A stretch of 55,151 bases of DNA, taken from the NCBI GenBank assembly GCA_050943575.1, contig JBMNPL010000003.1:1-55151 (forward strand), given 5' to 3'. The position numbers and the translations under genes were made by a program. Below, piece after piece: positions 10,091-42,798 of the stretch. This DNA comes from Alphaproteobacteria bacterium. Its GTDB lineage: Bacteria; Pseudomonadota; Alphaproteobacteria; Rs-D84. Each line of letters starts with the position of its first letter. The stretch's first letter is position 1. Under the pieces are notes generated by a model. The model worked only from the letters and a program-made list of their open reading frames with translations, did not search any database and was not told the origin of the DNA.

Positions 10091-11872
10091 ATGAAAAATA
10101 TAGAGATGAGAATGAGAACATTAATTAATATTGCTATAATTTCGACTGTTTTTTTAGGGACAAATGTTTTTGCGGCAAATATTTCACCAAATAACCGCGC
10201 ACGTCCAGGTTCTGTTAAAGGTTTTATAATTACCAATCAAACACAACAAGTCAAAACCATTACTGAACAAGGTCCTTATACAACACCAGGGTTAGATATC
10301 CATAATTGTCCAGGGTGCAGACCTGCACCACATATTACTGGGATCCCAAATTCTGAATGTGGTGAAATATTACCAACATTGGGTGTTGATATATGTATTG
10401 CACGTAAAGCATGTTCAGGTATTCAAATTAATGGACATAGTGGTATTTTTGACGAAACAACAACAACATGTAAAATTCCTGTTTGTGCATATAATTGGTC
10501 TGGGATAATAAAAAAAGATACAGAAGACGTCTGCACTTATGTTGATATGAATAAAGTTATTACTTGTAATGCTGATTTATTTGAACAAATAGATTCCATG
10601 CGCAGAACCAGTCAATGGGTTGTTCCTTTGGCAGTTGCAGGTGGTGCTGGCATAGGTACAGGTGTTGGTGCACTTATTGATAACAAACAAAATAAAAAAG
10701 CGGAAAATTTAGCATTAATTGCTGATGAAGTCGGGGCCAAATTTGATAAAACTATTACATTTGCTGGAAAAAATTATAAACTTCCCGAAGATGCTGATGA
10801 ATTAAAAGTTGCTATAAAAGCTAATCATGATTTAAAAGCAAAAATAAATAAAGTAAATACTTTGATTGATGAATGCACTAAAAATATGTTTGTAGAATTA
10901 ACATCTAATACAGTAAACGGCAAACCTAAATGGGGTCGTATAAAATTAACCAATGGTTCAGATTGTGCATCTAGTGATCATGATGTTAATAAAGTTAAGT
11001 ATTGTCAATTTCAAAATCCTCATAGTGGCACCAATAGTAAAGCTGATTGTGCAAAAAATTTATATAAAGAAACACCTTTTAATGACGACTATCTTAAAAG
11101 TGTAAATAGCACAAATCCGATAAGTAGCTATTTTAACTCTTGGGGAAATTGGGGACGTGACGCAACATGTTATTTTCGTGATAGTTTAGGTTCTGGCGAA
11201 GCTAATGTTCATGCAACAATTCAATCTGATTTAGCAACTATAGAATTTTTGAAAAATTATATACAAACTTTTTCAAATGATCCTGATAGACAAATTTTGG
11301 TTAATTTGCTAAAAAAATTTAAATTTGAATCTAATTTTTCAACTTCTGGTGCAAGTAATGTGAATAAAGATATTTTAAATTGGGTTATTGTTAAAAGTGA
11401 AGACAATACAAAATTTAATATTATCTCTGGTGGAAGTTGTAATACTAGAGAACTAGATAATATTTTAAATATTAATAACACAAACTCTATGTCAAGTGGT
11501 GCATCAAGTAATATTTTATTCGAAGCATTTGGTGCATTAAGTGTGTTAAAAAGCATCGGGGTTTCTTTAAGTGATGATTTAAATACATTATTAAACACTT
11601 TAATATTAAGCGATGAAATTTTAGAAATTAAAGGTTTGGGAGATAGTATCAGAAGTGAACTTGGAGCAGATCGCCCATTCTTTAAAACAGCCAAGGGACG
11701 TGGGTTATTAATCGGTTCTGGTGTCGGTGCAGTTGCAGGACTGGGATACTGGTTCGCCGAAGGTGCAGGAACTTTCTGTGATGTAGGCGGATTAGAACAA
11801 GTAAAATTGAAAAAAAGTTATTCTATACCATCATTCCGCGATTACTTAATAAATAAAGGGTTTATAAAATAG
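10091..11872 (+). CDS. Secreted Cys-containing protein with two glycine-zipper hydrophobic segments
   Basis: 593 aa with signal peptide ...ISTVFLGTNVFA and an N-terminal Cys cluster. Segments are VPLAVAGGAGIGTGVGALIDNKQNKKAENLA and GLLIGSGVGAVAGLGYWFAEGAG. Confidence 0.7.
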   Translation: MKNIEMRMRTLINIAIISTVFLGTNVFAANISPNNRARPGSVKGFIITNQTQQVKTITEQGPYTTPGLDIHNCPGCRPAPHITGIPNSECGEILPTLGVDICIARKACSGIQINGHSGIFDETTTTCKIPVCAYNWSGIIKKDTEDVCTYVDMNKVITCNADLFEQIDSMRRTSQWVVPLAVAGGAGIGTGVGALIDNKQNKKAENLALIADEVGAKFDKTITFAGKNYKLPEDADELKVAIKANHDLKAKINKVNTLIDECTKNMFVELTSNTVNGKPKWGRIKLTNGSDCASSDHDVNKVKYCQFQNPHSGTNSKADCAKNLYKETPFNDDYLKSVNSTNPISSYFNSWGNWGRDATCYFRDSLGSGEANVHATIQSDLATIEFLKNYIQTFSNDPDRQILVNLLKKFKFESNFSTSGASNVNKDILNWVIVKSEDNTKFNIISGGSCNTRELDNILNINNTNSMSSGASSNILFEAFGALSVLKSIGVSLSDDLNTLLNTLILSDEILEIKGLGDSIRSELGADRPFFKTAKGRGLLIGSGVGAVAGLGYWFAEGAGTFCDVGGLEQVKLKKSYSIPSFRDYLINKGFIK

Positions 11873-12050
11873 TGGTTAGTGTAGTTCATAAAATAATATC
11901 TCTTTCTTTACAAATATAAATCCGTGCACTCCTGCGTAGGCAGGAGCGAGTCTTTTAACCTTTTAATTTCTTGATTTATGATATATTCGTAATTAGATAT
12001 GGATATTCTATCCCCCCTAACCACAAACACTAACACTGGCCACTAACCAA
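11870..12050. repeat. Modular intergenic repeat, locus R1
   Basis: Left block tagtggttagtgtagt, hairpin ctcctgc-gtag-gcaggag (11929-11946), and right block cctaaccacaaacactaacactggccactaacc. The segment 11929-12000 is an inverted near-copy of 19478-19545. Confidence 0.85.
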
Positions 12051-15140: not shown

Positions 15141-15300
15141 GTGTAAATTTGTGATTAGTGATAGTGTTTGTGGTTAATAATTATTTAAATTAATTAATGT
15201 TTAATAAACTCATTTCGTTTTTTATTTATTATTTTTGCAATTAATACATTTCCCCCTTGTGTCATTCCTGCGTAAGCAGAAATATAAGGACTTAACTTTT
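15141..15300. repeat. Modular intergenic repeat, locus R2 (decayed)
   Basis: Block gtgtaaatttgtgattagtgatagtgtttgtggtta and a degenerate hairpin gtcattcctgc-gtaa-gcagaaat (15261-15283). Confidence 0.7.
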
Positions 15301-15348
15301 ATTCATAATGCAAAATCAATATACTAAATTAAAAACACAAACCGCTAT

Positions 15349-15528
15349 TTATAGTCCATAATTACCACGTGGATGACCAAATCTATTAATATACTGGGAA
15401 TATCTTTCATCCTGTTTTTGTCTTTCTTTTTCTAAATCAGAAAATTGGGCTTTTCCAGCTTTGCGTTTTTTTAATTGTTCTAATTCTTGTTTTGCTTTTT
15501 CTATTCTTTTTTTATCTTTTTCTGCCAT
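15349..15528 (-). CDS. Small basic/coiled hypothetical protein (59 aa), absent from ORF track
   Basis: ATG preceded by a strong SD (aaggagtaaataATG). Translation is MAEKDKKRIEKAKQELEQLKKRKAGKAQFSDLEKERQKQDERYSQYINRFGHPRGNYGL. It falls below the 60-aa track cutoff. Confidence 0.55.
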   Translation of the reverse strand: MAEKDKKRIEKAKQELEQLKKRKAGKAQFSDLEKERQKQDERYSQYINRFGHPRGNYGL

Positions 15529-16363: not shown

Positions 16364-16431
16364 AGTTAGTGTTTGTGATTTGTAGAGATATTTTTTACAT
16401 ATCTAATTACCACAAACACCAAGCACTAATT
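16364..16431. repeat. Modular intergenic repeat, locus R3 (minimal inverted-block form)
   Basis: agttagtgtttgtgatttgt ... accacaaacaccaagcactaat flank an inner hairpin agatat-tttttac-atatct. The locus fills the whole gap between convergent rph and groEL. Confidence 0.8.
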
Positions 16432-18497: not shown

Positions 18498-18713
18498 ATG
18501 ATTTATAATATTCGTGTTATTACAAATGCTAAAGAATCAAAAGTAATTATGGGCGAATCAATCAAGGTTTATACAACTGCTGTTCCAGAAGATGGCAAGG
18601 CTAATAAAGAAGTGATTAAAATTTTGGCAAAACATTTTAATATTGCAAAATCAAAAATTAAAATAATTCGCGGCGAAACCAAGCGAGATAAAACTATTGA
18701 AATTATGAATTAG
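18498..18713 (+). CDS. DUF167/YggU-family protein
   Basis: 71 aa: ...VYTTAVPEDGKANKEVIKILAKHFNIAKSKIKIIRGETKRDKTIEI matches the YggU pattern (APP-x-GKAN ... GxxSRxK). SD is aaggagg. Confidence 0.8.
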   Translation: MIYNIRVITNAKESKVIMGESIKVYTTAVPEDGKANKEVIKILAKHFNIAKSKIKIIRGETKRDKTIEIMN

Positions 18714-18772
18714 GAGTGTTAATTATATAGCCCTTGTCTGCGCAGGAATGATACAAACCACTATTATTAACC
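18711..18772. repeat. Modular intergenic repeat, locus R4 (fragment)
   Basis: Contains cccttgtctgcgcaggaatgatacaaaccacta, a degenerate half of the ATTCCTGC-N4-GCAGGAATGACAC hairpin module, plus a CCACTA block. It lies between convergent genes. Confidence 0.55.
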
Positions 18773-19351: not shown

Positions 19352-19582
19352 TGGTTAGTAATTAGTGGTTAATGTTTGTGAGGTTGTGTCATTCCTGCGT
19401 AGGCAGGAATAAGGCTTATCTAGTGTTAGTGGTTTGTGTTTGTGATAATTGATTGTATAAAAATATATTTTTACTAATTACGAATATATTACAAATCAAG
19501 AAATTAAAGATTTTTAAGACCCTCTCCTGCCTACGCAGGAGTGACACAATGGAGATTGCGAGGAGTGATACTAACCACTAAT
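19352..19582. repeat. Modular intergenic repeat, locus R5
   Basis: Block tggttagtaattagtggttaatgtttgtg, hairpin attcctgc-gtag-gcaggaat (19391-19410), block tagtgttagtggtttgtgtttgtg, inverted hairpin ctcctgc-ctac-gcaggag (19524-19541), and terminal ctaaccactaat overlapping the stop codon of the 990-aa ORF. Confidence 0.9.
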
Positions 19583-22550
19583 AACTTATAAACAAATTAT
19601 TATTATCGGCTGATGGCCAACCATCAATTTTATCACAACCAGATACATTACAATCACCTGTGCCATTTAATCTCCAACACTCTGCGGCAAAATCAAATAT
19701 ACAAGTTGTGCCGGTTAAAATATTCAAAGAGTAATAATTGTTTGGCTCAGCAGGTGGTGTACCTGACGAATAATTTGGATTTCTGTATGTACCATTTGTT
19801 TTATTTATAACAACCCAACGACCAGAACAATTTATAGTATCACCATAGGGATATTCATTTGTTGATGGACTTCCTGAAATTATTCCACCAACACAAACTA
19901 AAAAGTTCATCCCTGGTTTATACCCTGGTATTGATGATGCTTCAGGAATCAAGAAAGCGACTGCAAATTCATTGTCATCACTTGATGAACATATCTTATA
20001 TTCTCCCTGCTCATCAGATTCACCTGAATAACTTGCAGTGGCAGCAAAATTTAAGTTCGAAACTGATTTACTATTATTTGCACCGCAACAATTATTAAAA
20101 TAATCCGTACTATTATTACCTGCACAACAATTTGACCAACCTGCACCCTCCACCCAATCTCCTGTAGAGTAATTAACCGGATCTGAGAAGGATGATTCGG
20201 GATTAACAATATTAAATAAATTTAAAGGACTATCATTAGAGTTTACACAATATGTAATATCACTGGCTAATTGATCATCTGTAGAGCACCCATTGTTAGA
20301 AAGTATATATCCTGGATTACACGTTGAACCATTACAAGATTGATTAGTATTTTCTGCAAACCATGCTAATAAACTATCACTTTGCAAACCGGTATTTAAA
20401 ATTAAACTGTCGCTAATACTAGGACTCTTTGAACAATTACCCCAAATACGTTCTGTAATACGACACAAATCTGCATAAATATTAGAATTATTTGCGCACC
20501 ATAAATGCATACTTGTCGATTGTGCAAGAGTTGTAGTGCCTGATATTGGATCACGAGTATAACTTCCATTACCAACAAAAGTTTCAACATATACACCATT
20601 TTCATTTAAGGAACCAAATTTACCAATATTTGTCATAATATTTGAAATAACTGGTGTACCGGCGGCTGCAACACATTCTTGTACTTCACCCCAACAAGGA
20701 TTATCAATATTAAGATTTAAAAGATTTGTTCGTATAATTGATGTTTCGGATTGACATAAACCAAACTTGGATTCCAAATTCATACAATTACGGATTATAC
20801 AATTTTTACCAACTTCAGTACATGTAGTAATAATTTGATCCAAAGTTTTAGCCGTAGCTATATTTCCAATCGCTTCACCCCAATAACCATCTGTTTCCTG
20901 ACCATTTATTAATGCAGTACAAGCAGTTTTAACATCCGCACAAACTTGATTAACATTCTTATCATAGCTAACACCAAAAATTGAAAGTGCACGAGAATCA
21001 AAATCAACCAAAGAGCCCGAAGTATTCATCATACATTGTGTTGTGATTGTTGTGCAACTTTGCCGCATATCTTCTAATTTTTGTTCCTGTGCTAATTTTA
21101 TTTGTGCCAACGCATCTTCTAAAAAAGATGCCCAAACAACAGACCCCAACGATTCACAATTTTTCATTGATGGTTCTAAGTATTTTTTCTTGGATTCTAA
21201 AAATGTTACAAATTTTTTATTTTGACCCGCTTTACTCCATTTTTCATTACCAGTCGGACGAGTAATCATATCCCCCAATTGACTTAAATCACTTGTTAAT
21301 ATCGCTGAACCAGTCGCAGGATTAATATATTTACCCGACCAATCTAAACATTTACCCATATCCTTGCCACAAACTGATGAATCAGATAAGGCATCCAGCA
21401 TTTTTTTCTTGCATGCTAAAATATCATCAGAATTGCGAGTTTGCTGATTGTTTAATCTTGACATTTCCAGCAATGCGCCGCCTTCGCGAACCTTTTCTAA
21501 AGTTTTATCTTTTAATCCAGCATAAGTTTTTGAAACAGTATTACAATCTTGTTCTATAGCAGCAGTATAAGCATTTTGAGCAATTGGAATTTCGTCCGGT
21601 TCACAAACTTCCGCTGCCATTTCTAGACATGTTGGCAATGCCGCTTTATAAAGATTTTCACCTTCTTTAACCGTTGTTTCAATTCCCATTTCTGGATCAA
21701 TCGTATCAAAAACATTTGTGTCCATTGATAAACTCATCGCAGAAAAATTATTTGCAGATTGAGTATCCGCATTTGCAGATTTTAATTTTTTCATAATCGT
21801 GTTTAATATATTTTTTGAATCTGATTTATCATCTTGCTGAAATGCTAATTCACCTTCGGTAGCAATAGACATTGCAGCAGCATCTTCTTTATCCATATTA
21901 ACAGCCAACAAGCGCTCATTAAAATCTAATAATTTTTGCTCCACCGTATTCAAAGTTTTTTTAATATTATCAAATTCATGTATTCGTGCTGAACAAGCAC
22001 AACGTTTTAATTGTGCATCTTTATTAGCACAAAATTCATCCATACATTGAAAAAAAGTGTCGCGACATAATTTATATCCCGTTGCAGGCTTGCCAATTGT
22101 GCGCGTTGAACTAACACCCGAACGTGCAACCATTGCACTGCGTGGAACCGATAATGTGCCAACACGAGTAGGATTTTTAATAGCACGTCCACCAACATGT
22201 GTGCTTGCAATATTAGTATCAGGGTTACGTGATTTAACCGATGGATTAACTGCTGATCGTGATAAAACTTCACGCGGTTGAGCCACCTGTGCAACCGCAG
22301 CGCGCGTTTTTACATTCGCAGCCGCACGTGGTACCGTGCCACGCACTGATGTTTGTTGATTTGATTTTGTTGTTGATGATTGTTGATGTGCCCTTTGTTC
22401 ACGACTATCCGCCCTGCTGGATGTAGTTGATGTATTTATAATTGATGCACCACGCACTGCTGCACGTGCTGAATCAACATCTTCGGCACGCACAAAACCT
22501 GTGCAAAACAGCATTGCACAAAAAGCAAAGACTAACGGCTTTTTCATCAT
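19578..22550 (-). CDS. Large secreted Cys-rich protein (family A paralogue, 990 aa)
   Basis: Signal peptide MMKKPLVFAFCAMLFCTGFVRA, then an Arg/Ala/Ser/Val-rich low-complexity region. Next come YKLCRDTFFQCMDEFCANKDAQLKRCAC and many further Cys pairs. The C-terminus is N/S/G/C-rich. Confidence 0.85.
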   Translation of the reverse strand: MMKKPLVFAFCAMLFCTGFVRAEDVDSARAAVRGASIINTSTTSSRADSREQRAHQQSSTTKSNQQTSVRGTVPRAAANVKTRAAVAQVAQPREVLSRSAVNPSVKSRNPDTNIASTHVGGRAIKNPTRVGTLSVPRSAMVARSGVSSTRTIGKPATGYKLCRDTFFQCMDEFCANKDAQLKRCACSARIHEFDNIKKTLNTVEQKLLDFNERLLAVNMDKEDAAAMSIATEGELAFQQDDKSDSKNILNTIMKKLKSANADTQSANNFSAMSLSMDTNVFDTIDPEMGIETTVKEGENLYKAALPTCLEMAAEVCEPDEIPIAQNAYTAAIEQDCNTVSKTYAGLKDKTLEKVREGGALLEMSRLNNQQTRNSDDILACKKKMLDALSDSSVCGKDMGKCLDWSGKYINPATGSAILTSDLSQLGDMITRPTGNEKWSKAGQNKKFVTFLESKKKYLEPSMKNCESLGSVVWASFLEDALAQIKLAQEQKLEDMRQSCTTITTQCMMNTSGSLVDFDSRALSIFGVSYDKNVNQVCADVKTACTALINGQETDGYWGEAIGNIATAKTLDQIITTCTEVGKNCIIRNCMNLESKFGLCQSETSIIRTNLLNLNIDNPCWGEVQECVAAAGTPVISNIMTNIGKFGSLNENGVYVETFVGNGSYTRDPISGTTTLAQSTSMHLWCANNSNIYADLCRITERIWGNCSKSPSISDSLILNTGLQSDSLLAWFAENTNQSCNGSTCNPGYILSNNGCSTDDQLASDITYCVNSNDSPLNLFNIVNPESSFSDPVNYSTGDWVEGAGWSNCCAGNNSTDYFNNCCGANNSKSVSNLNFAATASYSGESDEQGEYKICSSSDDNEFAVAFLIPEASSIPGYKPGMNFLVCVGGIISGSPSTNEYPYGDTINCSGRWVVINKTNGTYRNPNYSSGTPPAEPNNYYSLNILTGTTCIFDFAAECWRLNGTGDCNVSGCDKIDGWPSADNNNLFISY

Positions 22551-22592: not shown

Positions 22593-25500
22593 TTAAATAC
22601 CAACAGAATGTTTTATTTTTAACATAAATATAGATTCATCCCCGAATTGATTAGTATGGTCTGGATTTATACGATAAACAAAACCAAGTGCGCCTGTTGT
22701 TGCTCTGCCTAACTGGCTGCGATATGCTAATGAAAATCTTGTTTCACGAACATTGGGCGCTAAATCAAAACTTGCTATATAAGGCGTTGTATTTAATTCA
22801 TACCCACCATCATTTTCAGTAATTTCATAATCCATTGTGGCATATTGCATATTACCAGAACGCACCGCCAAAGGTTGTGTAATTGCAAAAGACCAATTTT
22901 TATAATCAGCAGAGATTGCGAACGAATTTGATTGAATTTCTGATAATCCTAAAATTATATCTCCGTTTGGATTTGCACGAGTATTTACAAATGTAGAACG
23001 TGCAGTTAAAGTTAGCGAATCGGATGGTGAAAACATCAAAGTAGTATCAAGATAAATTGTATTTCCTCCGCCCAGTTCTAATAACCCATTTGAGTATGCA
23101 CCCAGCAATGTATTGTTTTCATGTGCTGTTCCGAAAGAGGTTTTAATAGCGAACTTTTCACCAGTGAAGCCGACCGTGCTTTCGGCGCCTTGGATTAAGC
23201 CTAATTTTTGTGATTCATACATTCCAGAAATTGCAGGGTCTGATTCTAATAATTGTTCGTCTGTGATTTTTCCGCTAAATGCTTTCATACCCACATTCCA
23301 CGCGCCACTAATCCAATTTGCGCCGGTTGATATTGCGTCTGATGCCAATGATAGCACTGGATTTGAGCCGTCTCCGCGTAATACAATATTATCCGAATCG
23401 TTTAAATGATGTTTATATTCGGCGTTTAGTTTCCAATTACCCAATTCATAACCAAATGACATTTCAGATAACCCATTCATATTGATTGTTCTGTTCGATT
23501 CGGAAAATTTCATACTGGTTGAAAATCCATTTAAATTTTGCTCTATTTTATTATTTTTTTGAGTTTCAAAATCACCCAAAACATCACCCAGATAAATTCC
23601 ACGACGATTTCCCGATAATGCAAAATTATTTTCAAATATACGCGGTAAAGTCAAACTACCATCTGCTGATTGTATATAATCCCAAGTTGGTACCGATATA
23701 GATGCACCGCGAGCACCAAAAGCACCCGATAAAGAAAGTCCAGTTTGATGAGCAGTTCCCGCACTAGCAGAACGCCATTGTCCGCCAGTAATAGATGTTG
23801 TTCCAGTTGAATAATATATAGTTGTTCCTGGTTTTGTTGCGCGTTCTAGATTTACCAATCCGTATCCAAATACTTCGGCAAAAACATCTAGATAATCTTC
23901 TCCATTTGTAACCCGCATATTAAATTCTGGTGGTAATACATATTTATTAGATAAAAAGTCTATTAATTCTTCTTTGGTTTTTGGGGTATTATTTGTATTT
24001 GTCGGCGCTAATAAAGTTCCATCACTAGTTAATGCTAGAAGTGTGAAAATTTGATTAGAATTCATATATGGGAATGCACCCTTTATCGTGGCAACAGCGC
24101 CAGCCATTGCTGATACGGCTTGCTCGCCCGTACTGCCAGCGGCTGCGAAACACCAAGGATCTATATTGCCGGTACCCTTGCCTGCCATACCACATGCACG
24201 CGAAGCATACTCGTTTCCATCAGTCCCTTGTTGATACGAAGCCAAAGTTATTTTTCCTGTGGTAGTATTTCCCTCTATCCCTGAAACAGAATCAATACCA
24301 GATGTTCCATTTAGCGTTTGAACCGCAACAACTGACATAAATTTGTGATTCAAATTAGTCCATAATGCTGGTGCAAGATTTTCAAATGTGGGGCCTAGAA
24401 TACTTAAACTTTTACCTTCGCCAAGTCCCCAATTAAATTCACCAGTTGAGTAAATTAAAATTGGCGACCAAAAACCACCCATACCACCAAATAAATTACC
24501 CGCATCATTTCCTGGAATAGATGTATCTGAGGTGTTTTGATTATAATAACTATTTATAAGACTCAAAAAAATAGATTGTTTCGCAGAAATAGTTTCACCA
24601 ACAGAAATTGCTACCAGCGCATCATTTATTGTTGCCGCATTATTATTACGTAATGGCTGAATTATTGATGAATTTGCAATTACATCTACGACTCTATTTC
24701 CACTCTCACTTAAACTTGCAGAATTTAACATTGCTTGATAATTTAAATAATCTGCGGTTGTTAATTGACCAGAAATAACCAAGTTATTTGTATCTGTATC
24801 TAAAGAATAAATATTTGTTGCCCCGCCCCCTGCATCAATATATAACAAGTTATCAATACCAACAATACCTGTAAATCCATGTGCTCCTGTCGCGGTAAAA
24901 GTTTTGGTATTTGAATCATAAATTACTGTATGTTCTTCTCCGTCTATATCTAGAAAAGCAATTGTTTCAAAAGAATTATTATCTGCGGTACCCAGAATTG
25001 TTCCAGTGTCATCCTCGGTCCAGAGTTTTCCAGCACCTGTTCTATAAACAAGCAATTGGCTATTTGGTGCAAATCCATAATAATCACCAGACGCACGGCC
25101 GCCAAATTCCCAACCAGCAATGATTTTTGCCAACGAAGAATCTATATCTGATGCATATTGATTAAATACAGTGCCATATCCAGATAAATCATATATAGGA
25201 TTTTCAGAACCACCATCTTTTTCATTATTATAATATTTATCAACAGCATAAGTTGTTGAATCTGCAGCCGCACTGGTTGCATAATCTATATTTCCACGAA
25301 CCGCACTACCACCCGTCGAATTAATTCCATTACTTGTTATTAATGCTGTTAAAACTGGACGACCACCACCTGTATCATTTAACATAGCAACAGGTGCATA
25401 TTTACCAGATGCCCCCAAACGAAATGTTCTTTGTCCCAAGTATCCACGTGCTAATGGGGAATAACCGCGCATTAATAATAAATAATTTTGTCTGTTATCC

Positions 25501-26129
25501 GAGGACATAAAATTAAAATCTTCATAATATGGATGATTATCAGAATTGCTATAAAAATCTAGTTCATAATTTGTTCCACTGGGACCTGACGGCAATGCAC
25601 CCAATTCCCATGCTGTTGTTGTTGGGGTTGTTGTTCCGCCACTGGAACCACTACCATGCCCGCCTGAATTTCCAGCACCTGTATTTTTTGAACTGCCAGA
25701 TGATGATGAAGATAACATTGCCACACCACCAATTACTGCCGCGGCACCACCTGCCATTAATACCATATTTTGTGGTGTTGATAATCCGCTAAAAAAACCT
25801 TTGGAAGATTTACCAGCTGATTGTTTTTGATGATATTTTTTTATTTGTTGATCACAATTTGACGCGTCTGCACCATAGGCTTGTAAAATTTGAGCGGTAT
25901 GAATATCATTATTATTTATTGCGGTACAAACTATTGATAATCCTGTACTATCTATATAATTTATATTTACACCCGAACGAACCAAGGCATCAACTGTTCT
26001 GGTATCACCTGCCCTGGCGGCTGCTAATAATCGTGCGGCATCTGAAAATTCTGCACGCGCATGATTTGGCATAAAAAATAATATGCTGTTAATAATTAAA
26101 AACGAATAAATAAAGGGTTTAATTTTCAT
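22593..26129 (-). CDS. Autotransporter-like outer-membrane protein with N-terminal ankyrin repeat
   Basis: 1178 aa. Signal peptide FLIINSILFFMPNHARA precedes an ankyrin-type repeat (AARAGDTRTVDALVRSGVNINYIDSTGLSIVCTAINNNDIHTAQILQAYGADAS). A glycine-zipper segment MVLMAGGAAAVIGGVAML and a G/S linker come next. A long G/T/S/N-rich passenger follows. The last ~280 aa have alternating beta-strand character. Confidence 0.65.
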   Translation of the reverse strand: MKIKPFIYSFLIINSILFFMPNHARAEFSDAARLLAAARAGDTRTVDALVRSGVNINYIDSTGLSIVCTAINNNDIHTAQILQAYGADASNCDQQIKKYHQKQSAGKSSKGFFSGLSTPQNMVLMAGGAAAVIGGVAMLSSSSSGSSKNTGAGNSGGHGSGSSGGTTTPTTTAWELGALPSGPSGTNYELDFYSNSDNHPYYEDFNFMSSDNRQNYLLLMRGYSPLARGYLGQRTFRLGASGKYAPVAMLNDTGGGRPVLTALITSNGINSTGGSAVRGNIDYATSAAADSTTYAVDKYYNNEKDGGSENPIYDLSGYGTVFNQYASDIDSSLAKIIAGWEFGGRASGDYYGFAPNSQLLVYRTGAGKLWTEDDTGTILGTADNNSFETIAFLDIDGEEHTVIYDSNTKTFTATGAHGFTGIVGIDNLLYIDAGGGATNIYSLDTDTNNLVISGQLTTADYLNYQAMLNSASLSESGNRVVDVIANSSIIQPLRNNNAATINDALVAISVGETISAKQSIFLSLINSYYNQNTSDTSIPGNDAGNLFGGMGGFWSPILIYSTGEFNWGLGEGKSLSILGPTFENLAPALWTNLNHKFMSVVAVQTLNGTSGIDSVSGIEGNTTTGKITLASYQQGTDGNEYASRACGMAGKGTGNIDPWCFAAAGSTGEQAVSAMAGAVATIKGAFPYMNSNQIFTLLALTSDGTLLAPTNTNNTPKTKEELIDFLSNKYVLPPEFNMRVTNGEDYLDVFAEVFGYGLVNLERATKPGTTIYYSTGTTSITGGQWRSASAGTAHQTGLSLSGAFGARGASISVPTWDYIQSADGSLTLPRIFENNFALSGNRRGIYLGDVLGDFETQKNNKIEQNLNGFSTSMKFSESNRTINMNGLSEMSFGYELGNWKLNAEYKHHLNDSDNIVLRGDGSNPVLSLASDAISTGANWISGAWNVGMKAFSGKITDEQLLESDPAISGMYESQKLGLIQGAESTVGFTGEKFAIKTSFGTAHENNTLLGAYSNGLLELGGGNTIYLDTTLMFSPSDSLTLTARSTFVNTRANPNGDIILGLSEIQSNSFAISADYKNWSFAITQPLAVRSGNMQYATMDYEITENDGGYELNTTPYIASFDLAPNVRETRFSLAYRSQLGRATTGALGFVYRINPDHTNQFGDESIFMLKIKHSVGI

Positions 26130-26192: not shown

Positions 26193-26375
26193 TTTAGTGT
26201 TAGTGATAATGGTTTGTGTTTGTGGGGTTGGAGAAGTAAAGAATACTAACACTAATCACGAACACAAACACTAATCAGGTTTTAAGCCCTATTTCTGCCT
26301 GCGCAGGAATGACACAGAGTTTTATCCTAACCACTAACCACAAACACTAACACTAATAATTAACACTAATCACTA
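26193..26375. repeat. Modular intergenic repeat, locus R6
   Basis: ttagtgttagtgataatggtttgtgtttgtggggttggagaagtaaagaatact, inverted block aacactaatcacgaacacaaacactaatc, hairpin atttctgc-ctgc-gcaggaat (26291-26310), and terminal cctaaccactaaccacaaacactaacactaat... running into the grpE stop codon. Confidence 0.9.
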
Positions 26376-27626: not shown

Positions 27627-29030
27627 ATGCTAGAATATTTAAGACAAGCGTCAGATAAACCATTAGCAAAAATTTTAGTTGTAATATTAATTTTTAGCTT
27701 TGTTGGTTGGGGTGTTGCCAGCTGGATTCTCGGCGGAAATCAAATGGATGATTCAATATTACGAGTTGGTGGCGCACCGCTTAAAATACAAAGTTTTGAT
27801 GCGGAACGTGGACGTATTATAAATGCAATGAGTCGTGATGAGCAAAAAAAGATTTATTCTGATAAGGCTGCTCAAAAAGTATTTTCAGAACAAATTTTAT
27901 CACGTATGACAACTGAACTTATGTTGCAACAACGGGCGATTGACTTAGATTTTACTGTATCTGATTCTTATGTTGCCATGATATTACGAATGGAACCTGT
28001 ATTTCAAACAAATGGAAAATTTGATTTAGGACGCTATAACGCTATTTTAAGCCAATCACAAATAACCGAAGAACAATTATCAAATTCTATACGTAATGAG
28101 ATTTTACGTAGAATGGTTTTATCTGGGGTTAATACTGGGGTTAAAGCGCCAAAATTTATGACTGACGTAATGTATCAATCCAGATATATAAAACGTGAGA
28201 TTGAGTTCGCCACTGTAAAGTTTTCTGATTTTAAAATTTCAGAAAATCCAACAGAACAACAATTACGCGAAACTTATGCAAAAAATCCAAAAATAATTCC
28301 AGAATCTAGAAAAGTTTCTTATGTTTTAATACCTGCGAAAATGTCGCAACCTGATAGTTATGATGCAGGATATAAAACCGCACAAAAATTAGAGGATGAT
28401 TTAATCGGTGGTGAACCTATGGCAAAAGCCGCCGCCAAAGTAAAAGCAAAATTTGTTTCATTACCTGAAATTTCAATGGGGCAAAAATCTTTGGATCCTA
28501 TAATTGCTGACATAAATATATTCGCAATGGAACAAGGTATAGAAAGCGAGATTATTGAAACAAAATCAGGTTTTGTAATTGTTCGTGTTGATAATATAAC
28601 TGCTCAACATAATGCACCATTTGAATCTGTAAAAAAAGATTTAGTATCAAAATGGCGAATTGAACAACAAGAAAAAATGGCTTATAAAAAAGCAAATGAA
28701 TTATTAATAAAATTAAAAGATGAAAAAAAATTAATCGGTGGCAAAACCGCAGTTATTGGGCGGGCAAATGGTGCACCAGTTGAAGTATTAAATTTTGCTT
28801 TTGCAAATAATATTGGAACAAAAACTATTGTTCCGGCAACAAATGCTTTTTATGTTTTGAATATAAAAAAGGAAATTCCTGCTGATATAAATAAAGAAAA
28901 ACAAACAGCCATAGCGAAAGAATCTGATATATTAATAAATCGTGCAATTGTGGATGATTATATGTCGTTTTTACAACGTAAATATAAAGTGAAAATAAAC
29001 GAAAGAGTTTATAAAAGATTGATTAATTAG
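27627..29030 (+). CDS. PpiD/SurA-N-like periplasmic chaperone (membrane-anchored)
   Basis: I place the start at ATG 27627 (MLEYLRQASDKPLAKILVVILIFSFVGWGVASW, an N-terminal anchor typical of PpiD). The track's 27495 start overlaps tpiA antisense. Divergent tpiA/ppiD is a common alphaproteobacterial arrangement. Confidence 0.65.
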   Translation: MLEYLRQASDKPLAKILVVILIFSFVGWGVASWILGGNQMDDSILRVGGAPLKIQSFDAERGRIINAMSRDEQKKIYSDKAAQKVFSEQILSRMTTELMLQQRAIDLDFTVSDSYVAMILRMEPVFQTNGKFDLGRYNAILSQSQITEEQLSNSIRNEILRRMVLSGVNTGVKAPKFMTDVMYQSRYIKREIEFATVKFSDFKISENPTEQQLRETYAKNPKIIPESRKVSYVLIPAKMSQPDSYDAGYKTAQKLEDDLIGGEPMAKAAAKVKAKFVSLPEISMGQKSLDPIIADINIFAMEQGIESEIIETKSGFVIVRVDNITAQHNAPFESVKKDLVSKWRIEQQEKMAYKKANELLIKLKDEKKLIGGKTAVIGRANGAPVEVLNFAFANNIGTKTIVPATNAFYVLNIKKEIPADINKEKQTAIAKESDILINRAIVDDYMSFLQRKYKVKINERVYKRLIN

Positions 29031-29300
29031 TTATTAGTGTTTGTGTTAGTGGTTAGGGGTTAGTGGGATTAGAGAAGTAAAGAATACTATAAACACTAAT
29101 ATTGTTTCATTAAAATTTTGAACTTTTTGTCACTCCTGCGTAGGCAGGAGGGGGTCTTGATAGTATGTGATTATGATAGAATTTGTAGTTTATGAATTTT
29201 ATTTACAACTTACACTAACACTAATCAGGTTTTTAAGCCCTATTCCTGCCTGCGCAGGAATGACACGATGAAAAAAGAACACAGGGATGATACGATGATA
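29028..29300. repeat. Modular intergenic repeat, locus R7 (full-length form)
   Basis: Same module order as R8: heptamer block, ggg(g)ttag(t)ggga/ttggagag, inverted block, tttcattaaaa(t/c)tttgaactttttgtcac + hairpin ctcctgc-gtag-gcaggag (29133-29150) + ggggtcttgata, inverted block, aggttt(t)taagcc(c/t)tattcctgc-ctgc-gcaggaatgacacga (hairpin 29242-29261). Confidence 0.92.
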
Positions 29301-29310
29301 GCGTAAATAA

Positions 29311-29661
29311 TTAAATATCTGAGAATTTTACATCATTTAAATCAGGAGTTGCGCCAATTGTAAAAAAACCTTCTGATAAATCTAACCAATTCGGGTTCAT
29401 AGTTTCTATCAGTCTATATTTCCAAGCCCGTTTCCATTTTTTTAATTGCTTTTCACAATGTATAGCATCTGTTATTTCATTATAGACTTCAAAATATCCC
29501 AACTTGTTCGTATTATACTTGGATGTATAACTATCCGAAAATTTTCCTTGTTTATGTTGATATACTCGTTTAATCAAGTCCCCTGTTACACCGATATAAG
29601 TCGCTTTTGCACGATTATTAAACATAATATAAACATAGTATCTTCCAACTTTACGAACCAT
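29311..29661 (-). CDS. GIY-YIG domain nuclease (UPF0213-like)
   Basis: 116 aa: YYVYIMFNNRAKATYIGVTGDLIKRVYQHKQG is the GIY-(x10)-YIG motif with a downstream R and a conserved E (HCEKQLKKW). Confidence 0.85.
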   Translation of the reverse strand: MVRKVGRYYVYIMFNNRAKATYIGVTGDLIKRVYQHKQGKFSDSYTSKYNTNKLGYFEVYNEITDAIHCEKQLKKWKRAWKYRLIETMNPNWLDLSEGFFTIGATPDLNDVKFSDI

Positions 29662-29675
29662 TGTTAATATTTGTA

Positions 29676-31100
29676 TTACTTCGAATTATTTAGCATAGTT
29701 CCAATTTCTTCATATATATTTTGATTATTAATTGCTGCATTTGTTTTTAATTCTATGTCAGCAAATTGTTGCGCCACAGTTGGATTTGCAGGGTTCGCTC
29801 CTTGCCATGAAGCCGTTGAAACCAGATTGTTTTGAATGTTTATTTCTTTGCCAGAAGGTTGCTCCATATTCGAGTTTTTATCTTTATTAACTGTCTGTTT
29901 TTGTAGATCTTTATCAATCTTGTTAAAAACTTCTTGTGGTATTTCAGGATCATTAACATCATCTATTATTTTTAATGATGAATTTAGATTATCAGTTCCT
30001 GTTAGGGTTGGGGTTTCAGTAGATTGAGAATCGTAGTATTGTCCCCCCCCTTCATTCTCAACGAAGTCTTCCTGTAATAATGATGTATCATCATTCGTTT
30101 TATTTGCTTCTTGTTCGGCTTTTTTCTTTGCGACGGCATTTACTAATGCATGACCACCAATTGATGTAACCACACCTGCACCAAGTGCAATTGCACCACC
30201 GGTTACACGTTTTTGACTGGTGGCTTGTTGTTCTGCCAGCATTTGAGCATCACGACTGTTTTCATCTAATAAAGCCTCGCTTAATCTGCCAAAAGTGCTG
30301 GATGCACGACCTAAATCTTGATATTCATATAAACCAGTTGTTTTTTCATCCAAAATAACTTCGGATTCTATTCCTGCTTTTAATCCTAGTTGTTCTTTTG
30401 TATTTTTTAATTCCGCGGCTTTATTAAAATATTCTTCACGTAATAAATCTAGCCTATGTTCAGCATCAAGTGTAATATTTACATCGCCATAATTTGCCCT
30501 TTTGTTTGAATAAGAACAATATAGTTTTGATAAATAATCTTGCATATCTCTGATGGCTTCTTTATCTGCTTTCTTTTCAGCTAAACCTTGGGCTAATTGC
30601 ATGCTACCAATACCTATGGCAGCAGTTGAAACACTGGAAATAGCCTTGTTCATGCCACTTTGACCAATCTTGTCGTCAGATTTATCTTCTTCAGCATCAA
30701 CAATATTGGTATCACCGGTATTATTAAAATTATCTATTTCTTCCCCAGATTGTTCAGATTGTCGAAGTTTTGCATAAAGATTGGCAGATTTTTCATTAGT
30801 AGAACTTATTTCTTTTTCCATTTTTTTAATAATTTTGTCAGAATTTTTATTAGCATAACTATTATTTGCAATAAGGTCTTTTATTGTATTTTCGTAATCG
30901 TTAGCGGCAACATCTAATTTGCTAGTTAATGACTTTACAGTATCTATTGTAGAATCTGTCAAAATTTTATTAACTGAGTTTACATAATTACTTTTTGCGT
31001 TTTCTATCAACCTATCAGCAGTATGACGGTCAGTGTTGGCGATTACAGGTGTCGCAACAAAAATTCCAATACTAAATAAAATTACAAATGTTTTTTTCAT
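29676..31100 (-). CDS. Secreted coiled-coil protein with two glycine-zipper segments (474 aa)
   Basis: Signal peptide MKKTFVILFSIGIFVATPVIA. Segments are AAIGIGSMQLAQGLAEKKADKEA and GGAIALGAGVVTSIGGHALVNAVAKKKAEQEA. The start overlaps the upstream stop (ATGA). Confidence 0.8.
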   Translation of the reverse strand: MKKTFVILFSIGIFVATPVIANTDRHTADRLIENAKSNYVNSVNKILTDSTIDTVKSLTSKLDVAANDYENTIKDLIANNSYANKNSDKIIKKMEKEISSTNEKSANLYAKLRQSEQSGEEIDNFNNTGDTNIVDAEEDKSDDKIGQSGMNKAISSVSTAAIGIGSMQLAQGLAEKKADKEAIRDMQDYLSKLYCSYSNKRANYGDVNITLDAEHRLDLLREEYFNKAAELKNTKEQLGLKAGIESEVILDEKTTGLYEYQDLGRASSTFGRLSEALLDENSRDAQMLAEQQATSQKRVTGGAIALGAGVVTSIGGHALVNAVAKKKAEQEANKTNDDTSLLQEDFVENEGGGQYYDSQSTETPTLTGTDNLNSSLKIIDDVNDPEIPQEVFNKIDKDLQKQTVNKDKNSNMEQPSGKEINIQNNLVSTASWQGANPANPTVAQQFADIELKTNAAINNQNIYEEIGTMLNNSK

Positions 31101-33778: not shown

Positions 33779-34318
33779 ATGAACTTAAAAAAACTAATTA
33801 CCCCTGCATTATTTTCTATGTTGTGTATTGGCAGTGCAAATGCATCATTGGTTGATATGTATGTCGGTGCAACCGGTGGTATCGGAAGCCAAAGATATAT
33901 AGTTGATGGTGTTATGTCCCCTATTGGAAACTTTAATAAATCTGCAACGTCTTATGGCGCATTAATTGGACTGGATGTTCCAGTTGTTCGTGTAGAAGCA
34001 GAATATAATAAGTTAGATACCAAAGCATTAAAAACAAATTTAGCAATGGCAAATGTAATATTTAAATTATTACCAACACCTGTTGTTACCCCATATTTAG
34101 GTATAGGTGCAGGTATGCAATTTAATGGAAGTATGGAAACAGTTGATTCTGATAATAACTGGGCTGCACAAGGAATGCTTGGATTAACATTTTCAATTCC
34201 TGCAACTAGTATGAAAATTGATGCCGAAGCACGTGCAGTTTATATGCCAGATGTATTTGAAGATTGCCTTAATATTATCCATTACGAAGGACGTATCAAG
34301 ATTAGATATCAATTTTAA
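33779..34318 (+). CDS. Small outer-membrane beta-barrel protein (OmpA-like/porin-family), copy 1
   Basis: 179 aa with signal peptide MNLKKLITPALFSMLCIGSANA, alternating strands, and a C-terminal ...YEGRIKIRYQF. Confidence 0.75.
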   Translation: MNLKKLITPALFSMLCIGSANASLVDMYVGATGGIGSQRYIVDGVMSPIGNFNKSATSYGALIGLDVPVVRVEAEYNKLDTKALKTNLAMANVIFKLLPTPVVTPYLGIGAGMQFNGSMETVDSDNNWAAQGMLGLTFSIPATSMKIDAEARAVYMPDVFEDCLNIIHYEGRIKIRYQF

Positions 34319-34352: not shown

Positions 34353-34925
34353 ATGAATTTAAAAAAATTAATTGTTCCAGCATTGTTTCTATATTGTGTA
34401 TTTGGTGGTGCAAACGCATCATTGTATATAGGTGCAACTGGTGGTATAGGAAGTCAACAATATAAATATGATGGGGTAGTATCATTATATGTTGAAGATT
34501 TTGACGAATCGGTAAAATCTTATGGTGTATTAATTGGACTAGATGTTCCAATTTTTCGTATAGAAGCAGAATATAATCGATTAGATTCGAAATTTGTCAA
34601 AACAAATTTGGCAATGGTAAATGTATTATTAAAAGTATTTCCAACGTCTGTTATTACACCATATTTAGGTGTCGGTACAGGTATGCAATTTGGCGGAGAA
34701 GTAGAACAACCTGGTGGTATGATATACGATGCTAATAACACCCGAGCTATACAAGGAATGCTTGGATTAACATTTTCAATTCCTGAAACTAGTATGAAAA
34801 TTGATGCCGAAGCACGTGCAGTTTATATGTCAGATTTTATTCCTGTAGAAGAAGTAACACCTGTATCAGGTTCTGTAGATACGGTAAATTACGAAGGACG
34901 TATCAAGATTAGATATCAATTTTAA
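34353..34925 (+). CDS. Small outer-membrane beta-barrel protein, copy 2 (tandem paralogue)
   Basis: 190 aa with the same signal peptide type and an identical C-terminal YEGRIKIRYQF. The stop TAA overlaps the polA ATG (TAATG). Confidence 0.75.
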   Translation: MNLKKLIVPALFLYCVFGGANASLYIGATGGIGSQQYKYDGVVSLYVEDFDESVKSYGVLIGLDVPIFRIEAEYNRLDSKFVKTNLAMVNVLLKVFPTSVITPYLGVGTGMQFGGEVEQPGGMIYDANNTRAIQGMLGLTFSIPETSMKIDAEARAVYMSDFIPVEEVTPVSGSVDTVNYEGRIKIRYQF

Positions 34926-41523: not shown

Positions 41524-41554
41524 AAAAAAACACCGCAAAATGCGGTGTTTTTTT
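41524..41554 (+). terminator. Rho-independent terminator
   Basis: aaaaaaa-caccgca-aaa-tgcggtg-ttttttt, immediately followed by repeat locus R8. Confidence 0.75.
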
Positions 41555-41832
41555 GGTTAGTGTTTGTGGTTTGTATTAGTGGGGTTGGAGAGATTAAAAA
41601 CACTATCACTAATCACGAACACTTACACTATTTCATTAAAACTTTGAACTTTTTGTCACTCCTGCGTAGGCAGGAGGGGGTCTTGATAATTATTAATAAC
41701 AAATTTAAAAAAAACACTATCACTAGCCACTTACACTAGCACTAATAGGTTTTAAGCCTTATTCCTGCCTGCGCAGGAATGACACGAGAAAAACGCGGGG
41801 AGTGATACTAACCACAAACCACTAATCACTAA
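41555..41832. repeat. Modular intergenic repeat, locus R8 (full-length form)
   Basis: ggttagtgtttgtggtttgtattagtggggttggagag..., inverted blocks cactatcactaatcacgaacacttacacta and cactatcactagccacttacactagcactaat, hairpins ctcctgc-gtag-gcaggag (41659-41676) and attcctgc-ctgc-gcaggaat (41761-41780), and terminal ctaaccacaaaccactaatcacta. It is collinear with R7. Confidence 0.92.
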
Positions 41833-41838
41833 AAATCT

Positions 41839-42798
41839 CTACACAACCTCGGTAACTGCGCGTAAACTACCATCACGAGCCAATTGAACTACTCGTATTT
41901 TCTTCTTCATTTCTTCTATTAACTCACTGCGATTATATGCCGGTTGAGTATGTAAAATCCTATCCGCAAATGCAGCATAAGCAGCCTCAGCCGATTCGGC
42001 ATGAATCGTTGTATAAAAATGATCGTGCCCTGTTCCCAACATTTCCCATAATACAGACGCATTGTCCGTAGAAATCTCGCCACCAATAATTACATCCGGA
42101 GTCATACGAACAACCAAATCTAATAACCTTGCATAGTTAAATTTATTAGTTTGCTCTGTTCTGGATAAAATAAAATGAACCCGATTTTTCTGAGGAACCT
42201 TAATCTCACGAGCATCCTCAACCGTTATAACACGCGCATTCTGATCAATCAAAGTCAAAATGTGATTCAAAACTGTTGTTTTCCCAGTACTAGTCGCACC
42301 AGAAATTAAAATAGGACTGCCGTCATTAATCGCAGCCATAACCCTTTCATACGGATCATCAGGTTTCTTTTTACCACGAGGTTTTATCTCCATCAATTTA
42401 TGACCGCGTTTCAAATGATAGTTTTCAAACCCAACATCCGGCGCACCACTGCCACGAATGTTCATCGCAACACCACCCGTCACATCATTATCATCATACA
42501 TAACATTAGGACCAGCAATCGCAGTAAACCTATGATTCCCTGGTAAAGTAGCATAAACAACAGGCATGCCACGAATCGGATCAAATGGACGTTCATAAAC
42601 ATTTGCAACCGTATGAATTAAATCAATCAGATATTGCTTGCTTAGTTTTTCAGATTGATACGCCACCCACGGAACTCGCGCGCCATGTAAACGCATCCAA
42701 ACCTCGCCTGCACGATTAATCGCTATTTCCTCCACAAAAGATGGAGTAAAAAATTCTTCCAAAGGTTTTATTAAAGAATCTAAAACAATATCTGCCAT
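41839..42798 (-). CDS. virB11: VirB11-family type IV secretion/traffic ATPase
   Basis: 319 aa with Walker A GATSTGKTT, Asp box VITVEDAREI, Walker B PDVIIGGEI and His box GHDHFYTTIHA. Confidence 0.8.
   Translation of the reverse strand: MADIVLDSLIKPLEEFFTPSFVEEIAINRAGEVWMRLHGARVPWVAYQSEKLSKQYLIDLIHTVANVYERPFDPIRGMPVVYATLPGNHRFTAIAGPNVMYDDNDVTGGVAMNIRGSGAPDVGFENYHLKRGHKLMEIKPRGKKKPDDPYERVMAAINDGSPILISGATSTGKTTVLNHILTLIDQNARVITVEDAREIKVPQKNRVHFILSRTEQTNKFNYARLLDLVVRMTPDVIIGGEISTDNASVLWEMLGTGHDHFYTTIHAESAEAAYAAFADRILHTQPAYNRSELIEEMKKKIRVVQLARDGSLRAVTEVV

Follow-up and report, generated by a model that had tools for sequence, protein, structure and literature searches.

Introduction

Repetitive extragenic palindromic (REP) sequences of the CGTC-1 type, known as dRS3 in Neisseria and as RPE-6 in Rickettsia conorii, consist of a CGTC tag (TGTC in many of them, with CCTC as another accepted variant), an 8-bp stem that starts with A/T, a 4-nt loop and, mostly, a CCA tail; they occur mostly as head-to-head dimers between convergent or unidirectional open reading frames (ORFs), predominate in Alphaproteobacteria and have no dedicated transposase (Di Nocera, De Gregorio & Rocco 2013, PMC3733652). 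In Neisseria, dRS3 hairpins flank families of 50-150-bp modules and form with them what are called neisserial intergenic mosaic elements (NIMEs); according to their 2007 description, these had not been observed outside this genus (Bentley et al. 2007, PMC1797815). Hairpins of this kind have also been connected with a nuclease: the Ssn proteins, single-domain GIY-YIG nucleases (cd10448) of ~94-120 aa with conserved catalytic Tyr, Tyr and Glu, act on the dRS3-containing NTS hairpin, which they bind only when it is single-stranded DNA (ssDNA) and cut, strand-specifically, a few nucleotides upstream (5'). Their genes are typically flanked by 'Ssn-related motifs' (SRMs), an NTS-ssnA-NTS architecture has been described, and in N. 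meningitidis Ssn restricts transformation (Chenal et al. 2025, PMC11893778). Here, we analyse a stretch of 55,151 nt from an alphaproteobacterium (assembly GCA_050943575.1, contig JBMNPL010000003.1), called the window in what follows, in which eight intergenic repeat loci (R1 to R8) combine hairpins with GT- and CA-rich blocks and one of them adjoins the gene of a putative Ssn-like nuclease.

We propose that the eight loci are intergenic mosaics similar to NIMEs and to bacterial interspersed mosaic elements (BIMEs), built in two layers: REP-class hairpins that would be nicked by the nuclease encoded beside them, and species-specific blocks. We give this account, taken as a whole, a probability of about 0.72. 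An earlier interpretation, made from the letters of the window only (the sequence-only reading), had considered the loci as a dispersed, modular, intergenic family of REP-like elements or of miniature inverted-repeat transposable elements (MITEs), without recognising in it a described repeat. Our results support a dispersed, modular and REP-like family with nested composition. Nevertheless, the conserved hairpin core has already been described and therefore opens no new category; only the GT/CA heptamer blocks that surround it are new and species-specific.

Results

The sequences listed by the sequence-only reading are present at all eight loci, whose anatomy is given in Table 1. A 23-nt hairpin pattern (up to 3 mismatches) matched 12 times, corresponding to 9 distinct units that are all within the loci, and never in shuffled sequences. 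A triple heptamer pattern gave 5 matches in the window against 0 expected, and exact RTTWGTG heptamers cluster at the eight loci only. The two conserved hairpins that had been told apart, CTCCTGC-GTAG-GCAGGAG and ATTCCTGC-CTGC-GCAGGAAT, proved to be one unit in opposite orientations, TGTC-AYTCCTGC-GYAG-GCAGGAR. Units of the form ATTCCTGC-GYAG-GCAGGAAT have a perfect 8-bp stem and a 4-nt loop, and those of the CACTCC type, half of the copies, pair seven of the eight stem positions. The TGTC tag is found in 8/9 units, having decayed to GTGC in the unit of R1. In R5, R7 and R8, two units stand head to head with their tags outward, separated by spacers of 114, 92 and 85 nt respectively.

On their sequence, the window hairpins belong to the class that has been named CGTC-1 REP, dRS3, NTS or 'Ssn-related motif', and they show every feature of the CGTC-1 definition except the tail, which is ATAAGG/ATAGGG or GGGGTC/GAGGGTC and not CCA. 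Because the definition states that most, not all, tails are CCA, a different tail indicates a sub-type and not an exclusion. The sequence-only reading had recognised no described repeat, and had named a match to a catalogued family as a finding that would refute it; for the conserved core, such a match exists.

How widespread is this hairpin? When its 22-mer was scanned against one genome per species, at least 120 stretches were retrieved, and the matches listed include Alphaproteobacteria (among them Enterousia and Tisiphia), Legionella, Flavobacteriaceae, Dehalococcoidia, Caldilineaceae, Planctomycetota, Nitrospirota, Ignavibacteria and several Patescibacteria. In 162 copies from other genomes, the base before GTC is C in 52% and T in 47%, never a purine, and the search pattern is followed by T-C-C-A, that is, the last stem base and a CCA tail. 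Among the matches listed, the exact 22-mer GTCAYTCCTGCGYAGGCAGGAR occurs in Patescibacteria (Gracilibacteria, Berkelbacteria, Uhrbacteria), Dehalococcoidia, Planctomycetota, Nitrospirota and Cloacimonadota, a distribution that goes beyond the 5 phyla given for CGTC REPs in 2013. Dense hairpin arrays were also seen in some Dehalococcoidia loci, such as L046, with 13 copies in 8 kb.

Besides the hairpins themselves, one protein family links these loci. All-versus-all clustering of the ORFs from 132 hairpin-bearing loci revealed a single small protein family that recurred in eight loci from different sources. In 9/9 complete loci outside the window, which come from several phyla, a homologous GIY-YIG gene lies between a (+) and a (-) hairpin, each less than 100 nt from the gene ends. 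A tblastn search with this family identified as a homologue a window ORF that the sequence-only reading had missed, the 116-aa GIY-YIG nuclease gene beside R7 (Table 1). This gene is intact, and the hairpin pair of R7 is 45 nt from its 3' end. The encoded protein is 41-77% identical to its homologues, and the closest one outside the species, 77% identical and encoded on L137, shows the same arrangement: a hairpin pair comes after the gene, on its 3' side. The catalytic residues Y11, Y22, R32, H36 and E70 are invariant in the homologue alignment, and the distances between the two tyrosines and from tyrosine to glutamate (11 and 59) are very close to those of Y6, Y17 and E64 in N. meningitidis SsnA (11 and 58). 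NCBIfam assigned no family to the protein, and a PDB sequence search returned only a marginal match (UPF0213 protein BH0048, E 0.35). Taken together, domain, size, catalytic spacing and context indicate that the 116-aa protein is probably a member of the Ssn family, and homology and gene context suggest that the window hairpins would be its ssDNA recognition sites.

The same hairpins might instead be classical REPINs, that is, REP doublets that depend for their mobility on a REP-associated tyrosine transposase (RAYT, TnpA-REP) acting in trans from another part of the genome, with the GIY-YIG gene as an unrelated neighbour. The head-to-head pairs with spacers of 85-114 nt fold indeed like REPINs, and of this genome our analysis covered the window. 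However, the tag is TGTC/CGTC and not the GTAG to which RAYTs are tied, GTAG being found only as the loop, and the gene flanked by hairpins in the nine loci codes for a GIY-YIG protein and not for a Y1 transposase. Among the window ORFs scanned (55 kb), there is no Y1_Tnp domain and no RAYT, Y1 or DDE transposase, and CGTC REPs as a group are described as having no transposase of their own (Di Nocera 2013, PMC3733652). We consider this the least probable of the explanations weighed here.

Directly upstream of the ssn-like gene there is a gene for a 474-aa protein with a signal-peptide-like N-terminus (29676-31100, minus strand). Compared with positions 1270-3282 of contig L138, from a strain otherwise >99% identical, this gene is a mosaic: the central 160 residues are 100% identical, the N-terminal (residues ~16-124) and C-terminal parts have been replaced, and the L138 strain carries a 518-aa and a 147-aa gene in its place. 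The ssn region shows 95.6% nucleotide identity between the two. This mosaicism recalls the variation of genes beside dRS3/NIME arrays in Neisseria.

The second layer of the loci consists of GT-rich arrays (GTTAGTG/GTTTGTG) and their CA-rich complements, which bracket the hairpins and form outer stems. These tandem blocks are real, as had been claimed, but they are not purely heptameric: Tandem Repeats Finder returned periods of 6, 7 and 13, which means that hexamers and heptamers are mixed. No GT/CA block was present in more than 130 hairpin loci from other genomes, including the homologue loci L137, L139 and L140, or in the two nearest relatives, although no scan aimed at the blocks was made; outside the window, they were found solely in contigs of its own species (L004 and L126, the latter a metagenome contig of the same population with 34% G+C).

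Hairpins and blocks are joined by a limited set of modules. A regular-expression map identified as common ones GGGGTTGGAGAAG beside GT blocks, a 23-nt leader, a 35-nt spacer and two kinds of tail, and their order and orientation differ from locus to locus, which defines a mosaic and not a fixed element. As the sequence-only reading had noticed, R7 and R8 are collinear (217 of 243 ungapped columns identical, 89%, with 65 gap columns), and R1 carries an inverted copy of part of R5 (70 nt, 87% identity). The extent given to R2 was too short, as this locus runs to ~15348 and not 15300. Next to it, the lysine- and glutamate-rich 59-aa ORF (15349-15528, minus strand), putative and without family match, ends in a TAA directly followed by a GT-type block remnant, and falls in extra DNA that is absent from the relative whose GroEL is 95% identical.

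The repeat family extends beyond the window. The L126 mosaic is 680 nt long and, besides GT/CA blocks, contains five hairpins and a tandem duplication of 243 bp with copies 97% identical, and in contigs from four metagenomes the modules of R8 are attached to other unique flanks. Each copy of this duplication also holds (at 6160-6220 and 6403-6460) a truncated half hairpin, GTGTCATTCCTGCGTA, which is fused to a complete hairpin of the CACTCC type and lies 7 nt upstream of it; a nested insertion or an aborted copy could account for the fusion.

According to the predicted folds, the loci form one nested palindrome instead of small separate hairpins, in which the outer stem joins the outer GT block to the terminal CA block, and the two hairpin units pair together into a long stem. 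Such folds have z-scores of -3 to -10 on both strands (R8, -10.2 and -6.4; R5, -9.2; R6, -4.3; R3, -3.7 and -5.1), with the exception of R4, which is not significant (z +1.1 and +0.6). Rfam searches of the window at gathering thresholds recovered two tRNAs only, leaving the repeats without a match; under permissive settings, the palindromes gave nothing more than chance matches below threshold, for instance to miRNA precursors and to GcvB (27.5 bits, with a cut-off of 42 bits). A known RNA family was thereby ruled out as the identity of the repeats. Two other candidates were also dropped, a CRISPR-like array because the spacing is irregular, and integron attC sites because R'/R'' core sites are incompatible with GTTAGTG.

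We compared the loci with orthologous sites in two relatives, L001/L002 (GroEL 95%) and L003 (GroEL 82%), to which no mosaic corresponds. In L003, the convergent pair formed by the 256-aa ORF and virB11 is separated by just a 52-bp bidirectional terminator; in the window, the counterpart of this terminator and the stop of virB11 have R8 between them, and VirB11 ends in the same C-terminus as in L003. In L001/L002, GC-rich intrinsic terminators follow groEL and rph at the R3 site, and the rph-mprF gap measures 110 bp against 569 bp, R2 included, in the window. The mosaics are therefore lineage-specific additions and not conserved gene-specific terminators, the other possibility that the sequence-only reading had foreseen. 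Within the species, the strains of runs X2, X4 and X13 (~97-100% identical) carry R1 to R7 at the same places with small indels only, and no empty site was seen in the three of them. The X13 strain lacks a 72-nt module of R8, next to a flanking gene that is 97-98% identical. Hairpins are thus interleaved with families of short modules that vary among strains (the module maps, the X13 variant of R8 and the L126 duplication), as is characteristic of NIMEs and BIMEs.

R8, being a clean insertion relative to L003, could suggest a MITE, in which the GT/CA blocks would be the terminal inverted repeats (TIRs) of a non-autonomous transposon of DDE type (for instance, a TA-targeting, IS630/mariner-like one), inserted whole and with the other modules acquired later. 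The sequence-only reading had favoured TIR-like ends, most loci are bracketed by inverted GT...CA ends, and many boundaries can be read as TA|GTG...CAC|TA. However, the ends are degenerate tandem arrays of variable length and sequence with no defined terminus, blocks are also internal and in both orientations within one locus, the module orders are many, and R7 is devoid of one end. Neither a clear target-site duplication with respect to the empty site of L003, nor a transposase in the 55 kb, nor an empty/filled polymorphism within the species was observed; in particular, TA-GTG belongs to the repeat unit, so that a TA duplication cannot be called. A MITE origin is for these reasons very unlikely.

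All eight loci sit between genes, five of them at convergent and three at co-directional junctions. The claim that all lie at gene 3' ends holds in that every locus reaches at least one, but R2, R5 and R6 are also 43-64 nt upstream of the next co-directional gene. The coincidence with stop codons is stronger than first counted, at least six genes having been listed: the 50 genes of the window end in TAA (38), TGA (5) or TAG (7), and the seven TAG stops are all at element edges, no other window gene using TAG (hypergeometric P ~8e-6). In six cases (593-aa ORF, rne, 990-aa ORF, grpE, the ppiD-like gene and DUF167), the stop is the first TAG of the block, and the TAG of virB11, which we add, is 6 nt from R8. 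Likewise, the sole TAG among nine genes of L126 is the one at a block. Four other genes (rph, groEL and the 180-aa and 59-aa ORFs) have kept TAA, with the block starting 0-3 nt later. The DUF167 protein is as long as that of L001, where the orthologous gene ends in TAA; this indicates that the block replaced the stop codon and left the protein unchanged. At convergent junctions of the window there is either a canonical terminator or an element, and at that of R8 both. Four metatranscriptome runs contained traces of the organism, as few short contigs, none of which covered the elements informatively.

The position of the mosaics, where terminators would be, raises the alternative that they are regulatory structures grown in place by local slippage (terminators, Rho-loading CA tracts or protein-binding arrays), with hairpins as passive passengers. 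Such a view agrees with the strong stem that R3 forms without any hairpin unit, with CA blocks that are G-free over stretches of up to 49 nt and with the stability of the loci among strains. What argues against it is that unrelated loci share multi-module sequences at 89-97% identity, which requires copying between sites. Moreover, R8 adjoins an intact canonical terminator and is consequently not needed for termination, and R4 is decaying. Growth in place is hence an unlikely explanation of the loci. Regarding this terminator, a near-identical one (AAAAACACCGC-NNNN-GCGGTGTTTTT) borders the L126 mosaic (6808-6840) as well as R8, between unrelated flanking genes; the terminator itself may travel as a mosaic module.

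Table 1. Repeat loci of the window, with the terminator and the nuclease gene that adjoin them.
Feature	Position	Strand	Composition	Gene context
R1 mosaic	11870-12050		short GT block; one hairpin with decayed tag (11924-11946); spacer module S (11962-11996); CA block (12015-12048)	between convergent 593-aa ORF and rne; TAGs of the blocks are the stops of both
R2 mosaic	15141-15348		GT block 15146-15179; decayed hairpin 15260-15282(+); CA-type remnant ~15331-15345	remnant adjoins TAA of 59-aa ORF; 62 nt upstream of LPG-synthase-like gene
R3	16364-16431		hairpin-free palindrome: GT block, loop, CA block	entire 68-nt gap between convergent rph and groEL
R4	18711-18772		decayed remnant; half hairpin 18738-18754	between DUF167 (TAG 18711-18713) and 180-aa ORF
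R5 nested palindrome	19352-19582		outer GT block 19353-19380 paired with CA block 19569-19583; inner head-to-head hairpins 19387-19409(+) and 19524-19546(-) with spacer S between	990-aa ORF stops at block TAG
R6	26193-26375		GT blocks; GGGGTTGGAGAAG module; CA block; tail; single hairpin 26292-26314(-); long G-free CA block 26325-26371	grpE stop is block TAG
R7	29028-29300		GT block; E module; CA block; leader F; hairpin 29128-29150(+); 92-nt spacer with short GT (29180-29194) and CA (29208-29226) blocks; hairpin 29243-29265(-); no terminal CA block	ssn-like gene in place of terminal CA block; ppiD-like gene stop is first TAG
GIY-YIG nuclease gene	29311-29661	-	116 aa, single domain, Pfam PF01541 (E 4.7e-14)	
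Canonical bidirectional intrinsic terminator	41524-41554		ACACCGC-AAAAT-GCGGTGT with A and T runs	directly left of R8
R8	41555-41832		GT block 41555-41581; E module; CA block 41601-41627; leader F; hairpin 41654-41676(+); tail; CA block 41715-41747; tail; hairpin 41762-41784(-); V module; CA block 41806-41834	

With regard to the organism, the window has a G+C content of 34% and codes for groESL, rne, rph, grpE, tpiA, polA, priA, ftsH, clpB, an orphan virB11 and a number of large unknown proteins, of which one has ankyrin repeats. Its GroEL is 99% identical to that of a Logan contig, 95%, 84% and 82% to those of uncultured Alphaproteobacteria and ~77% to that of Candidatus Enterousia, and the same DNA is contained in landfill, bioreactor and biogas-digester metagenomes, in which the species is abundant. 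The source is an uncultured, low-GC and reduced alphaproteobacterium that is probably host-associated. Three hallmarks of host association were noted: a Protochlamydia-type outer membrane protein (Pom) domain at 4634-5962, a 1178-aa protein (22593-26129) with a weak ankyrin-repeat match (E 0.0017, below the Pfam cut-off), and the orphan VirB11 ATPase (41839-42798), away from other virB genes. Other features of the gene content are a ClpB homologue of 684 aa (7579-9633) whose alignment starts only at position 149 of the 853-residue ClpB profile, so that the N-terminal domain is absent; an OmpA-family gene (3258-4394) with an in-frame tandem duplication of 63 nt (21 codons) at 3474-3598 and 92-93% identity; and two tandem paralogous small genes with outer-membrane beta-barrel-like products (33779-34318 and 34353-34925), which share segments 81-91% identical and a 38-nt 3' end, stop included, that is 100% identical, suggesting a recent duplication or gene conversion.

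Discussion

How might the mosaics have reached so many gene ends? In the model that we favour, the first layer would be formed by TGTC-tagged hairpins, most copies of which stand head to head and could zip into a REPIN-like stem of ~25-30 bp, and the second layer by the GT/CA blocks that bracket them as outer stems. The encoded Ssn-like enzyme would recognise and nick the hairpins as ssDNA. Hairpins might then spread and rearrange through Ssn-dependent nicking of ssDNA together with recombination or slippage between microhomologous heptamer blocks, and not by cut-and-paste of an element with TIRs. Since the arrays carry a stop in every frame, they would have overwritten the gene ends that they reached. 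The composite stem-loops might now act as 3'-end structures, either terminators or mRNA stabilisers, at both convergent and co-directional junctions, the relatives using ordinary intrinsic terminators at the junctions that these structures have taken.

Several observations weigh against this model. The published SRM string, HGTCWYN(0-2)YYVSBRHN(0-5)WNVSBRGN(0-2)RNCYNB, matches none of the window hairpins with up to one mismatch. The base that follows the palindrome is A or G in the window hairpins and not C, the C at this place having been reported as the most important for binding by N. meningitidis SsnA (PMC11893778). Hairpins are found on one side only of the window nuclease gene, its 5' side having none, and the Ssn assignment draws on just domain, size, catalytic spacing and context. 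No mechanistic link between the heptamer blocks and the nuclease was found. The loci are fixed in the three strains examined, which gives no support to an ongoing mobility of whole loci. Finally, a role of the composite stems as 3'-end structures is suggested by their position and predicted fold.

As to the first of these points, the mismatch to the SRM string is due to the compensatory T/A stem pair and the non-CCA tail, and the string is a search heuristic and not a functional definition. At up to one mismatch, it also misses the hairpins of L029, L127, L132, L133 and L137. Because the string misses such hairpins and Ssn-like genes are nevertheless flanked by hairpins in all nine complete loci, it seems to have overlooked a sub-family whose stem is CCTGC/GCAGG and whose tails are ATAGG or GTGGG.

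A further question is what the GT/CA arrays are for. That they are a functional partner or a by-product of the Ssn system is a speculative idea which we hold to be rather improbable, and it can be put in two versions. One possibility is that arrays arise when repeated ssDNA nicking just 5' of the hairpins is followed by repair with slippage, and that they then serve as microhomology 'landing pads' for the copying of hairpin modules between gene ends. Another possibility is that the arrays have been selected as portable 3'-end cassettes, consisting of an all-frame stop and a stem, which would have replaced the stops (TAA to TAG) and the intrinsic terminators of housekeeping genes. If this idea were right, the window would hold the first array of NIME type outside Neisseria to have its nuclease in cis and to affect gene ends visibly.

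The significance of these loci does not depend on a new repeat class. They extend the association between Ssn and hairpins to a stem variant (CCTGC/GCAGG, with a non-CCA tail) that is supported by nine of nine independent loci, and they provide an example outside Neisseria of NIME-like arrays with a nuclease gene in the same neighbourhood, which bears on the role of Ssn nucleases outside natural transformation and on the spread of CGTC REPs. In addition, the presence of heptamer blocks at every TAG stop, where relatives have terminators, represents a testable case of repeats reshaping the 3' ends of genes.

Comparison with known systems places the different parts of the loci. The heptanucleotide repeats of cyanobacteria (short tandemly repeated repetitive, STRR, sequences) are, like those of the window, intergenic tandem heptamers with small hairpin repeats nested inside, but they are unrelated to them in sequence and phylum, and we know of no inverted GT/CA arrangement or coupling to stop codons in STRR sequences. 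REPIN/RAYT systems, based on GTAG REPs, resemble the window loci in their inverted hairpin doublets folding into a long stem, in a single-copy nuclease gene flanked by hairpins and in a probable recognition at the ssDNA level; they differ in the tag and in the nuclease superfamily, HUH/Y1 instead of GIY-YIG, and Ssn is not known to perform strand transfer.

The similarity with CGTC-1 REPs is closer. Both share an unpaired CGTC/TGTC tag, an 8-bp stem beginning with AT, a 4-nt loop, head-to-head dimers 20-100 bp apart, convergent or unidirectional junctions and predominance in Alphaproteobacteria, and some CGTC-1 families, for example in H. neapolitanus, are also nested in host-specific palindromes. 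In contrast, the window stem has a compensatory C>T / G>A pair (CCTGC/GCAGG versus CCCGC/GCGGG), its tails are ATARGG or GGGGTC versus CCA, and the CACTCC half of its copies leaves one of eight stem positions unpaired. With the NTS/SRM-SsnA system, the window has in common a small single-domain GIY-YIG gene beside inverted hairpins with the same core sequence, a catalytic Tyr...Tyr...Glu spacing of 11 and 58-59 residues and a high density of hairpins in a probably host-associated bacterium. Unlike that system, it has hairpins that escape the SRM string and carry no C after the palindrome, a gene with hairpins on its 3' side only, known here from sequence, and heptamer blocks, which are absent from the described system.

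Finally, NIMEs and BIMEs offer a close parallel for the overall architecture: dRS3-type hairpins alternate with repeat modules of ~50-150 bp whose number differs between strains and, as in NIMEs, an adjacent surface-type gene is mosaic between strains. The difference is that the window modules include tandem GT/CA hexa- and heptamer arrays, which form outer palindromes and supply stop codons. The window is thus best filed as a stem/tail sub-type of the known hairpin, with its own Ssn sub-family, embedded in species-specific palindromes of heptamer blocks.

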